From: a virus
Lineage: Duplodnaviria > Heunggongvirae > Uroviricota > Caudoviricetes
DNA: 32,650 nucleotides
Reading direction: 5' to 3' (one strand)
IMG/VR virus record: IMGVR_UViG_2740892015_000008
Both the position numbers and the translations under genes were made by a program. The notes under the pieces are model-generated. The model did no database searches. It saw nothing but the letters and a program-made list of their open reading frames with translations, and was not told the DNA's origin. Shown here piece after piece: positions 2,884-15,471 of this stretch (positions within the stretch are counted from its first letter, which is position 1; every line of letters starts with the position of its first letter).

Positions 2884-3624
2884 TTAACTGGCGGTGACGT
2901 TGATTTCTGCAACCGCAGCAAACTCACCATTACCGGATACGACCGGAATGTTGACCTTGCCTGCAGCAACACCTTTCACGGTGATGGTCATACCACTGAC
3001 CGACACGGTGGCTTTTGTTTTATCCGCAGACACCGCACGGAAGCTCTTGTCGGTTGCGCCTTCCGGCTGGAATGCCACGGTCAGCGTCGTGCTCTGCCCT
3101 TTAACCACCGAGGTGCTGGCAGGCGTCACGGTCATGCCGGTTGCCGCTGTTACCGTGCTGCGATCTTCTGCCATCGACGGACGTCCCACATTGGTGACCT
3201 TCACCGTACGGGTGATCACTTCCTTCGCTGTCACCGCCTTACCGATACTGCTGACCCAGCCACGGAACACATCGACCGTGCCGTTCGGGAAGCGGATTTT
3301 ATAGGCACGGGTATCACCTTCATTAAACCACGCCAGCAGCGCCTGCTGCCCCTGCTCTCCGGGCATCCACGCCAGCGTGAAGCTGGTATCTCCGGCGGAT
3401 TTCTGCCCCTGCCCGGTCGCGGCCCAGTCCGGATCTTCATCATCGAGATAACTGTCGTCATAGGACTCTGCGGTCAGTTCGCCGGGCGTCAGGTCTTTAA
3501 CTTTTGCCAGACGCGACCAGTCAACGTCTGAAAGCGGGTTCGCATAAGGGTCACCGTTCCCCTTATAAACCCACAGGGTGGTTCCGGCCCCTTTCACCGG
3601 TGCCAGAGGATTTGGTGTTGGCAT
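2884..3624 (-). CDS. V: Major tail tube protein gpV (C-terminal Ig-like domain)
   Basis: Translation matches lambda gpV (…[12 protein letters not shown]…, C-terminal Ig-like region). Start placed at internal ATG 3624 (MPTPNPL, SD GAGGA, 246 aa as in lambda) rather than the ORF-track start at 3654. Confidence 0.92.
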
Positions 3625-4027: not shown

Positions 4028-4602
4028 CGCTTTATTACCATTCTCAGTTGATGCTGCAGCGCATAGCCCAGCTCTTTCGGAAGACGTTCACGCCGTATCC
4101 GCTCAATATTCTGTTTAAACGCCGTGGTCAGCGGCACTGCCATCGGGATTTTCACCACATCAATGGGGTAACGGTTTTTCCCGGCCACACGCTGCATGAC
4201 ATGCCACCGGCCATTTTTCAGTTGCTGAATAAACGCGCCGGGAATACGACGGTTTCCCACCACAAGCACGCTACCGCCACCTTTCAGGGATGAACGCTGC
4301 CCCTTTTTACGACGCCTGCGGCGGGACAGGACAACCCGCGCATTCCCCAGCTTGATTACGGGCAAATCCCCCCGGTTAACCTTGATTCTGGCCTGCGGAT
4401 TTTTGACCGTGGCCCTTTTCAGCCTGGCCCTTTCCTTTACCAGTTTCCGGCGTACCTTTGTCTCACGGGCAACCTGTGCCGCCGACTGCGATATCGCGGA
4501 TGAAGCAACGCGGTTAATGGCCATTGCTGACGCACCAGGCACCGCCGTTCTGCTGATACGGCTGAGGTTTTCAACGGCCTGCTCAAGACCTTTTATGGCC
4601 AT
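4024..4602 (-). CDS. Z: Tail completion protein gpZ
   Basis: 192 aa, lambda gpZ length and synteny. Confidence 0.9.
   Translation of the reverse strand: MAIKGLEQAVENLSRISRTAVPGASAMAINRVASSAISQSAAQVARETKVRRKLVKERARLKRATVKNPQARIKVNRGDLPVIKLGNARVVLSRRRRRKKGQRSSLKGGGSVLVVGNRRIPGAFIQQLKNGRWHVMQRVAGKNRYPIDVVKIPMAVPLTTAFKQNIERIRRERLPKELGYALQHQLRMVIKR

Positions 4603-8131: not shown

Positions 8132-8151
<20 letters not shown>
6832..8151 (-). CDS. C: Head maturation protease / scaffold gpC
   Basis: GTG start at 8151 preceded by GGAGGAG, giving 439 aa as in lambda gpC with the same 20-nt overlap of the B 3' end. The ORF-track version (to 8286) is an upstream extension into B. Confidence 0.88.
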
Positions 8152-11832
<3,681 letters not shown>

Positions 11833-11858
<26 letters not shown>

Positions 11859-12378
11859 TCAGCAACCCCGGTATCAGTTCATCCAGCGCGGCTGCTTTGT
11901 TCATGGCTTTGATGATATCCCGTTTCAGGAAATCAATATGCCGGTTATCCAGCTCAGGAAAACGTCGCTGCACCGACAGAGGAATACCGTCGAGAATACT
12001 GGATATTTCCCTTGCTATACGCGACAGCACGAAAGTACAGAATGCGGTTTCCACCACTTCAGCCGATTCTTTGGCATTTTTCAGTTCCTGCGCCGTCGCC
12101 TGAGCACGAGTCAGGCGATGGCGCTCAAATTCAAGTGTTCCGGGGTGAAGATCTGCCTCGCTGGCCAGCCGCAGTTCTTCAACCTCCCGGCGCAGCTTTT
12201 CGTTCTCAATTTCAGCATCCCTTTCGGCATACCATTTTATGACGGCGGCAGAATCATAAAGCACCTCATTACCCTTGCCACCACCCCGCAGAACGGGCAT
12301 TCCCTGCTCCTGCCAGTTCTGAATGGTACGGATACTCGCACCGAAAATATCAGCCAGCTGCTTTTTGTTGACTTCCAT
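11833..12378 (-). CDS. nu1: Terminase small subunit gpNu1
   Basis: 181 aa, N-terminus MEVNKKQLADIFGASIRTIQNWQEQG (winged-HTH); lambda gpNu1 length; directly downstream of cos. Confidence 0.95.
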
Positions 12379-12399
12379 TGTTCATTCCACGGACAAAAA

Positions 12400-12600
12400 C
12401 AGAGAAAGGAAACGACAGAGGCCAAAAAGCTCGTTTTCAGCACCTGTCGTTTCCTTTCTTTTCAGAGGGTGTTTTAAATAAAAACATTAAGTTACGGCGA
12501 AGAAGAACGGAAACGCCTTAAACCGGAAAATTTTCATAAATAGCGAAAACCCGCGCGCCTTCCGCCCCGTAACCTGCCGGATCGCCGGAAAGGACCCGCA
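12400..12600 (-). other. cos site region (cosB-like repeats, cosN-like 12-mer at 12557-12568, cosQ side)
   Basis: Minus-strand sequence upstream of nu1 reads almost as the lambda left end (CGCGGGTTTTCGCTATTTATGAAAATTTTCCGGTTTAAGGCG…) and, on the other side, as the lambda right end (…CGGGTCCTTTCCGG.GATCCG.CAGGTTACG). The intervening 12-mer is GGGCGGAAGGCG. Confidence 0.75.
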
Positions 12601-12648: not shown

Positions 12649-12672
12649 TAAAAAAGCCCCGCATCGCGGGGC
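12649..12672 (-). terminator. Rho-independent terminator (minus strand) after the small gene at 12695-12910
   Basis: Plus-strand GCCCCGC-atc-GCGGGGC with a preceding A-run; on the minus strand this is a GC stem-loop followed by TTTTTTAT. Confidence 0.6.
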
Positions 12673-12694
12673 TACAGATAGGCGTGGCTACTCA

Positions 12695-12910
12695 TTAGTT
12701 GACTTCAACAAATATAAAATCATCACTGCCTAAACAATGAGAGCCATAACGAACTTCATACTCCCCATTCAATTCAGAGCATTTAGACTTCGCATCGCCT
12801 TCCGTTTCATAAACACCAACAAGATGCCATGGCTTGTAACGTACTACAGCCCAACCAAGAACCCATCCTTGATTATCAGGATCTGCCTTCAGGTTATTTT
12901 CCACAAACAT
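12695..12910 (-). CDS. Hypothetical protein (71 aa), late-region moron
   Basis: ATG with AAGGAG SD 7 nt upstream; relatively AT-rich; followed by a terminator. No recognisable motif. Confidence 0.5.
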   Translation of the reverse strand: MFVENNLKADPDNQGWVLGWAVVRYKPWHLVGVYETEGDAKSKCSELNGEYEVRYGSHCLGSDDFIFVEVN

Positions 12911-14418: not shown

Positions 14419-15471
14419 TTATTTCCCCACCAGCTCGTTTATCTCTTTCACTGTCTGGTTAAACCGCTCTGACTCAAGCTCAACACCTAAGGCCCGACGC
14501 CCCAGCGCCATTGCTGCTTTTATTGTGGAACCGGATCCCATAAAAAAATCAGCAACCAGATCACCAGGTCGACTACTGGCATTGATTATTTGCCTGAGCA
14601 TATCCGCCGGTTTCTCACACGGATGTTTACCCGGGTAGAACTGAACGGGTTTATGCATCCAGACATCGGTATAAGGCACGGAGACTGATACGGAGAAATA
14701 GCGCCGGAGAGATTTAAACTCATCCAGCAATTCAGAATATTTGCGATTCAGTGAATCATAAGATGCCACCAGCTGGTGGTGTGGTTGTTCCAGTTGTTGT
14801 TCCTGAAACTTCTCTGCCGCTATACGGGAAAACAGTGCCTGTAACTTCCGATAGTCAGCCTCATTCGGCAACTGCCACTGACTGGCACCAAACCAGTGGG
14901 AAACCATATTTTTCTTACCTGTGGCTTCGGCAATTTGTTTTGCCGTTATACCCAGTTCGGCACGAGCATCCCTGAAATACGATATCAGCGGTGCCATTAT
15001 GTGCTGTTTGAGTTCCCTTTCTTTTGCCGCATAGCCGTCACTTTTGCCGCGATATGGTCCCTGGTAATGTTCAGCAAACAGAACGCGCTCTGTGGCAGGA
15101 AAATATGCGCGCAGACTTTCTTTATTACACCCATTCCAACGTCCGGACGGCTTCGCCCAGATGATATGGTTAAGCACGTTGAAACGTTCACGCATCATGA
15201 TCTCAATATCAGATGCCAGGCGATGCCCACAGAACAGGTAAAGGCTTCCGGCAGGTTTTAACACCCGCCAGAACTGGGCCAGACAGTGGTCCAGCCACTT
15301 AAGGTAATCTTCGTCCCCTTTCCACTGATTGTCCCAGCCGTTGGGTTTCACCTTGAAGTACGGCGGATCGGTAACAATCAGGTCAATGGAATCATCAGGC
15401 AGGGACTGAATAAAATGCAGGCAATCAGCGTTGATTAAATCAACACTGTTTATTTTTACAGTATTTTTCAT
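14419..15471 (-). CDS. DNA methyltransferase, N6-adenine/N4-cytosine amino-MTase (permuted motif order: DPPY then FxGSG)
   Basis: 350 aa; catalytic motif IV-like IVTDPPYF near the N-terminus and AdoMet motif I-like FFMGSGST near the C-terminus. Confidence 0.8.

Follow-up and report, generated by a model that had tools for sequence, protein, structure and literature searches.

The window analysed here is a stretch of 32,650 nucleotides from a virus record (Caudoviricetes; IMGVR_UViG_2740892015_000008), and its minus strand carries a cos site that resembles that of lambda on both sides of a divergent cohesive-end 12-mer. The locus raises the question of what such a replacement does to packaging: the preliminary description had proposed that the prophage would produce different cohesive ends and be packaging-incompatible with lambda, or else be packaging-defective. 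Comparison of the site with lambda, with deposited phages and with prophages in genome and metagenome collections makes it highly probable that this is a functional lambda-type cos whose cosN has, in its right half, a common natural allele, an ordinary site without a defect. The present analysis supplies the anatomy of the site, its distribution, the finding that the terminase does not vary with the allele and the decoupling of hexamer and flanks; the anchoring of the terminase and the tolerance of changes at bp 7-12 are taken from the literature.

Read on the minus strand, the cos junction of the window consists of ...CAGGTTACG, GGGCGGAAGGCG and CGCGGGTTTTCGC..., in this order; shown with other stretches of flank, it reads ...GATCCGGCAGGTTACG GGGCGGAAGGCG CGCGGGTTTTCGCTATTTATG... 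and ...GGGTCCTTTCCGGCGATCCGGCAGGTTACG GGGCGGAAGGCG CGCGGGTTTTCGCTATTTATGAAAATTTTCCGG.... The cohesive-end 12-mer of cosN, GGGCGGAAGGCG, occupies positions 12556..12567 (minus strand), one base lower than 12557-12568, where it had first been placed; the site itself, a lambda-type cos with a divergent 12-mer on the minus strand, was read correctly. The 12-mer occurs as a single copy in the window (chance expectation 0), whereas the canonical lambda 12-mer GGGCGGCGACCT was not found there, the window holding only two unrelated matches with two mismatches each, at chance level. In the lambda reference NC_001416, the left end is GGGCGGCGACCTCGCGGGTTTTCGC and the right end ...CCGACAGGTTACG, which gives GGGCGGCGACCT as the 12-mer. 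This alignment, suggested at the outset as a check, bears out the lambda 12-mer given in the preliminary description and shows that it differs from that of the window. The first six base pairs, GGGCGG, are identical to lambda, and bp 7-12 read AAGGCG in the window versus CGACCT in lambda. Base by base, the changes lie at bp 7, 8, 9, 10 and 12, while bp 11 is C in both; the earlier statement that positions 7-12 differ is accurate for five of these positions and wrong for bp 11. The two 12-mers match at 7/12 bases and mismatch at 5/12, and the overhang predicted from the sequence is, as had been anticipated, unlike that of lambda.

All five changes fall within bp 7-12; the left half of cosN, the flanking CG pairs and cosQ are retained. 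By comparison, nucleotide divergence from lambda over Nu1-A is 3.35%, with third-codon-position values of 4.8% for A and 18.7% for Nu1. Because five of six sites are changed in the hexamer against a far lower divergence in Nu1-A, the cluster is not attributable to chance; even at a per-site divergence of 15%, the probability of at least five changes in a hexamer is no more than 4e-4. With AAGGCG in place, two of the five rotationally symmetric pairs of lambda cosN, 3/10 and 6/7, are lost, and a new pair, 4/9, is gained. An inversion or local reverse complement as the origin of the hexamer was considered and rejected, since reverse-complementing CGACCT gives AGGTCG rather than AAGGCG.

The cos region of the window was aligned as a whole against that of lambda, and the element calls rest on this alignment. 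Directly 5' of the predicted top-strand nick lies a 5'-CG-3' dinucleotide (12568..12569, minus strand; lambda bp -2 and -1), and a second one lies directly 3' of the 12-mer, by the predicted bottom-strand nick (12554..12555, minus strand; lambda bp 13 and 14). The junction takes the form ACG/GGGCGG....../CGCG, in which the left half and the nick-flanking CG pairs of a lambda-type cos are all present. Upstream, at the lambda spacing, is the cosQ heptamer GGGTCCT (12590..12596, minus strand), which reproduces the lambda sequence and spacing column for column. In published work, cosQ is the packaging termination signal, and both cosQ and the nick-flanking CG pairs are conserved (PMC4669245). On the other side, a cosB-type region extends from bp 13 to the start of Nu1 (12379..12555, minus strand), with R3 (CGTTTCCGTTCTTCTTC), I1, R2 (GAAAGGAAACGACAGG) and R1 (CTGTCGTTTCCTTTCT) matching lambda. 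The assignment of these two stretches as R2 and R1 follows the lambda sequence. The R elements keep the same spacing to cosN as in lambda, and the complex form of cosB (R3, the IHF site I1, R2 and R1) is present in full, the R-site positions being taken from PMC9026076. What separates the cosB region from that of lambda is a few substitutions and one 1-nt deletion, the latter outside the R elements. The deletion lies near 12400 (minus strand) in the R2-R1 interval (alignment column 198), with the Nu1 ATG at nt 190, counted from the left end, rather than at nt 191 as in lambda; it is common to the window and the deposited phages PhiR46_1 and PhiR70_1, and since both phages share it, it is evidently tolerated. 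The flanks had been described as lambda-like, and they are: the window shares with lambda the architecture and spacing, cosQ, ACG before the nick, bp 1-6 and 11, and bp 13 onward through R3-I1-R2-R1, and it differs at five base pairs of cosN, in the R2-R1 deletion and in the predicted overhang, GGGCGGAAGGCG.

Approximately 90 nt upstream of cosN, the window also contains a terminator-like hairpin (12655..12673, minus strand) with an 8-bp stem, seven G-C pairs and a following TTTTTAT. It comes after a 71-aa open reading frame (12695..12910, minus strand), between the lysis genes and cos, a position that falls inside the expected late transcription unit.

The genes that would act on this site are likewise of lambda type. 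On the minus strand 3' of cos, the gene order is Nu1, A, W, B. Nu1 (TerS; 11833..12378, minus strand) is an intact protein of 181 aa, identical to lambda Nu1 at 169/181 residues (93%) and matching Pfam Phage_Nu1 with 318 bits, and A (TerL; 9933..11858, minus strand) is an intact protein of 641 aa, identical to lambda gpA at 634/641 residues (99%), with Pfam GpA_ATPase (172 bits) and GpA_nuclease (250 bits) domains. A Nu1-type TerS is thus adjacent to a gpA-type TerL with a nuclease domain, the arrangement of a lambda-type cos. They are followed by W, an intact head-tail joining protein of 68 aa (9730..9936, minus strand; Pfam gpW), and B, an intact lambda-family portal protein of 533 aa (8132..9733, minus strand; Pfam lambda-family portal). 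A lambdoid prophage integrated in the chromosome of E. coli SBF22, complete from the integrase through gpJ and Lom, shares 99.93% identity with the window over 32.6 kb. Directly upstream of the lysis cassette, the window carries a 350-aa open reading frame (14419..15471, minus strand), and at the matching position of the SBF22 prophage a 350-aa gene is annotated as a DNA methyltransferase.

How a lambda-type terminase might deal with such a cosN can be read from published genetics. Natural differences at bp 7-12 of cosN have been called "common" (Feiss et al. 2015, PMC4669245): N15 and phiD326 vary from lambda at bp 9 and 12, and Gifsy-1 at bp 8, 9 and 11. The phenotype of mutations at bp 7-12 is minimal and that of the symmetric mutations in the left half severe, as illustrated by G2C, which lowers the yield about 10-fold, and C11G, which has no effect; this asymmetry has been attributed to anchoring of TerL by cosB-bound TerS (PMC4669245). 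Lambda TerL cuts cosN-N15 as efficiently as cosN-lambda, with the same yield for both, neither the lambda nor the N15-hybrid terminase discriminates between cosN sequences, and the authors conclude that the upkeep of bp 7-12 is not under selection (PMC4669245). The changes covered by these experiments are single ones and the two of the N15 allele, while AAGGCG is a replacement of five of six bases; by analogy with these alleles, and in view of a terminase that does not vary with the hexamer and of the occurrence of the hexamer in the deposited phage PhiR46_1, a lambda-type TerL would be expected to cut the AAGGCG cosN efficiently. In the mechanism that we favour, Nu1 would bind the R sites of cosB, with IHF at I1, and thereby anchor gpA, which would nick the top strand after ACG, just before G1, and the bottom strand at the boundary of bp 12 with the CG at bp 13-14. 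At these predicted nick positions, the outcome would be 12-nt 5' overhangs of GGGCGGAAGGCG in place of the lambda overhang GGGCGGCGACCT. The cosB anchor would set the bottom-strand nick with no reading of bp 7-12, and because the nick would be placed in this way, the hexamer would be free to vary. The two ends of the phage would be perfectly complementary and its life cycle unaffected, because both would be cut from copies of the same cosN. The sole consequence would fall on hybrids: packaging from a variant to a canonical cos, in either direction, would yield ends mismatched at 5/12 positions.

To find how often the hexamer occurs, 5,426 complete E. coli genomes were surveyed with a 46-nt probe in which each 28-nt seed word spans the variant hexamer. 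The variant junction is present in 155 of these genomes, and plasmids account for 16 of its 166 places; the equivalent canonical probe finds 8,401 places in 4,481 genomes; the AAGGCG allele therefore makes up about 2% of the lambda-type cos sites in E. coli. Eight complete chromosomes carry the exact junction (46/46), and many more carry it with one flank difference. In IMG/VR, 82 contigs have the variant, 78 with the exact 25-nt junction and 4 with a one-base flank variant, and a further 31 contigs with the variant junction come from public metagenomes, mostly of the human gut. Among GTDB species representatives, the variant is carried only by an Escherichia sp. Two deposited phages contain the 12-mer, PhiR46_1 (PV340565) and YDC107_1 (CP025712). 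This distribution disposes of a sequencing or assembly artefact, or a mutation private to one contig, a reading for which nothing speaks beyond the window being a single sequence: the junction recurs at 46/46 in eight chromosomes and turns up again in two phage records and in independently assembled contigs of IMG/VR and of metagenomes, and we give this reading no credence.

The same survey bears on whether the site is dead, that is, whether the five-base change abolishes bottom-strand nicking and leaves the prophage cryptic for packaging. The extent of the change lends some weight to this idea, five of six right-half base pairs being altered, including bp 10 and 7 of the lambda symmetric pairs, and so does the lack of documented physical ends in any record or contig examined: neither deposited phage record (PhiR46_1, YDC107_1) begins or finishes at cos, and 0/109 of the IMG/VR and metagenome contigs with the exact 25-nt junction terminate at the nick site. 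The carriers themselves point the other way. Among 83 of them, at least 33 distinct 45-nt left flanks lie beside the 12-mer, cosQ is GGGTCCT in 82 and ACG precedes the nick in all 83. In 48 carriers the neighbouring TerS shares about 95-100% of its residues with lambda Nu1, and in 12 about 80-85%; divergent forms, a 182-aa type (about 55%) and a 183-aa type (about 35%), lie beside the variant in 2 and 4 carriers, respectively. Scored by finding open reading frames, with a cut-off of at least 550 aa for TerL, 67 of the 68 carriers that could be assessed have an intact TerS, and 43 of 48 an intact TerL. The minority of decayed prophages, the 5/48 that lack a full TerL, could be counted in favour of a defect; these five are ordinary deletion derivatives or TerS-only elements. 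An identical hexamer is thus kept in at least 155 genomes, 82 IMG/VR contigs, at least 33 left flanks and several TerS types, together with conserved cosQ and nick-flanking bases and nearly always intact terminase genes. A dead site would not be expected to spread or to stay conserved in this manner, and judged from the sequences the carrier pattern is what a working site, not a lesion, would be expected to give. In addition, the right half of cosN tolerates change in published experiments (PMC4669245), and the allele occurs in one of the PhiR panel of temperate phages, PhiR46_1. With a match to lambda in every cos element to which published genetics assigns an essential or specificity-determining role, an intact terminase and an allele that is frequent over many backgrounds, the proposal that the prophage is packaging-defective is very improbable.

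The PhiR panel, including PhiR46_1, is said to originate from Brenes and Laub in 2025, and another paper used it in efficiency-of-plaquing assays. The PhiR46_1 record gives ECOR13 in its host field, and from this field and the use of the panel in plaquing we infer that PhiR46_1 has been propagated as virions.

If AAGGCG were instead the mark of a separate cosN specificity, with a co-evolved TerL nuclease that reads AAGGCG and not lambda cosN, and vice versa, a hexamer far more diverged than its flanks is what such a switch might leave behind. We compared the terminases of 4 variant-cosN and 36 canonical-cosN phages with genes of equal length, and found no position in Nu1 or gpA fixed between the two groups. 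The gpA of one canonical-cosN phage (L008) is identical to that of the window at 636/641 residues, in the same range as those of the other variant-cosN phages (632-636/641), and another canonical-cosN phage (L011) has a Nu1 identical to that of the window. Within this comparison no terminase residue tracks the cosN allele, and a co-evolved terminase is not apparent. The flanks are just as indifferent to the allele: in 45 variant carriers with a lambda-type cosB, the 118-nt right flank is identical to that of canonical carriers in 18/45, and the 45-nt left flank to that of some canonical carrier in 10/45. The allele is moreover paired with several divergent TerS types, and the lambda and N15-hybrid terminases lack cosN specificity in published experiments (PMC4669245). 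We therefore attach very little weight to a separate specificity. The expectation that the prophage would be packaging-incompatible with lambda survives only in part: it does not hold for recognition by the terminase, since cosB, cosQ and the terminase itself are of lambda type, and it applies only to the ends of hybrid chromosomes, mismatched at 5/12 positions.

A functional lambda-type cos with a natural right-half allele also fits the spectrum of cosN hexamers in IMG/VR, taken from a scan, partitioned by position, that held the left half and flanks constant and let the right half vary. The canonical CGACCT was found at least 116 times, followed by AAGGCG (82), which is the commonest non-canonical hexamer, CGTCCG (the N15 type; 64), CAGCGG (22) and CGTCCT (14). 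Minor hexamers include AGACCT (7), CAGGCG (4), GAGCGT (3), CAGACG (3), TGACCT (2) and several singletons, among them one AAGGCT. Each of bp 7-12 varies, and when the whole 12-mer was left free, a left-half change was seen in 1/120 sites. The one-step neighbours of AAGGCG are CAGGCG (four) and AAGGCT (one), intermediates being scarce relative to the main alleles. No flank position fixed between the variant and canonical classes was found. Because no flank position is fixed and some variant carriers have flanks identical to those of canonical carriers, the hexamer behaves as a discrete allele recombined into many backgrounds. A plausible route for its transfer would begin with a chromosome packaged between unlike cos sites, pass through a heteroduplex at the annealed ends and be resolved by replication or repair. 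Chromosomes with mismatched ends are indeed viable and give both alleles (Feiss et al. 2015, PMC4669245), a 2-bp end mismatch lowering the viable yield about 4-fold (PMC4669245).

These data are also in line with a more far-reaching possibility, that the hexamer is a maintained polymorphism in which CGACCT, AAGGCG, CGTCCG, CAGCGG and others define selected "cohesive-end compatibility groups". The hexamer is more diverged than its flanks and decoupled from them, and intermediates are rare. If it were true, hexamer alleles would be exchanged among phage backgrounds right at the joint of the cohesive ends, and a 5/12 mismatch would act as a partial post-packaging barrier that penalises chromosomes packaged from the cos of one phage to that of another in polylysogens or mixed infections. 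Recombination acting together with neutral drift of bases under no constraint accounts for the same data, and we consider selected groups unlikely.

Among the closest known systems are PhiR46_1 and YDC107_1 (Ravinvirus), whose 12-mer and cosB are identical to those of the window and whose Nu1 matches at 181/181 residues. Both are N15-like linear plasmid prophages (telL/telR, ParAB, a large primase) in which cos is unannotated, whereas the window belongs to an integrated lambdoid prophage. N15 and phiD326 have the cosN GGGCGGCGTCCG, likewise a right-half variant with G at bp 12 as in the window, and the N15 sticky end is annotated (NC_001901). However, N15 has two changes (bp 9 and 12), its cosB is of another, simple kind and its TerS has a specificity of its own, in contrast to the five changes and the lambda cosB of the window. 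In Gifsy-1 and in mEp213 and LLS, the latter two with the cosN GGGCGGCGCGCT (PMC12315714), the variation is likewise found only within bp 7-12, but the hexamers are others, the changes are fewer than in the window and the phages have non-lambda head genes. AAGGCG fits the description of right-half variants given by Feiss and is more diverged than the published examples compared here (N15, phiD326, Gifsy-1, mEp213/LLS). Neither the 12-mer nor its reverse complement turned up in a phage paper when searched for in full texts, a search outside which lay the dedicated survey of Vahanian et al. 2017; the only two papers returned were unrelated, one on a plant gene and one on Streptomyces.

The AAGGCG allele provides a well-populated example for a known rule, namely that bp 7-12 of cosN vary and bp 1-6, the nick-flanking CG pairs and cosQ do not. 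The persistence of a five-of-six replacement in a phage that has probably been propagated would add natural evidence for the model in which nicking is directed by the cosB anchor. In practice, annotators and tools for terminus prediction should allow for 12-mers other than GGGCGGCGACCT at a lambda-like cos, and phages or cosmids with the AAGGCG allele would anneal improperly to lambda arms. The importance for biology at large is small.

Several individual records deserve mention in their own right. In PhiR46_1 (PV340565.1), telL/telR are annotated at the record ends, and ParA/ParB and a 1331-aa primase are present, while the head-tail module is wholly of lambda type (Nu1, A, W, B ... J, Lom, Stf) and not of N15 type, with a complex lambda-type cosB; the phage is a mosaic of a Ravinvirus lifestyle and lambda packaging specificity. 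Related records are YDC107_1 (CP025712.1) and E. coli "plasmids" of about 46 kb with the variant junction, for example NZ_CP101200.1 and NZ_CP165740.1. PhiR70_1 (PV340577.1), from the same panel, has at 3001-3012 the cosN GGGCGGAGACCT, in which bp 7 is changed from C to A and the flanks are otherwise identical to lambda; its hexamer, AGACCT, is the one that also occurs in 7 IMG/VR contigs. The allele GGGCGGCAGCGG, the fourth that is well populated, found in 22 IMG/VR contigs (for example L231, 2343-2370), differs from lambda at bp 8, 9, 11 and 12, and the right flank of its carriers is mostly CGCGGATTTTCGC; it can be likened to the Gifsy-1 pattern from the literature with an extra change at bp 12.

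In L130 (cos at 4116) and L189 (cos at 3155), both with the 12-mer in forward orientation, a 183-aa TerS-like open reading frame about 35% identical to Nu1 begins at nt 137, and within about 6 kb there is no TerL, portal or capsid gene, tail-type genes being found instead; these could be cos-bearing satellites or PICI-like elements, or deletion derivatives. The metagenome-derived contig IMGVR_UViG_3300045988_113976 (56,122 bp) carries two variant junctions, reported on opposite strands, which could reflect two inverted prophages or an assembly chimera.
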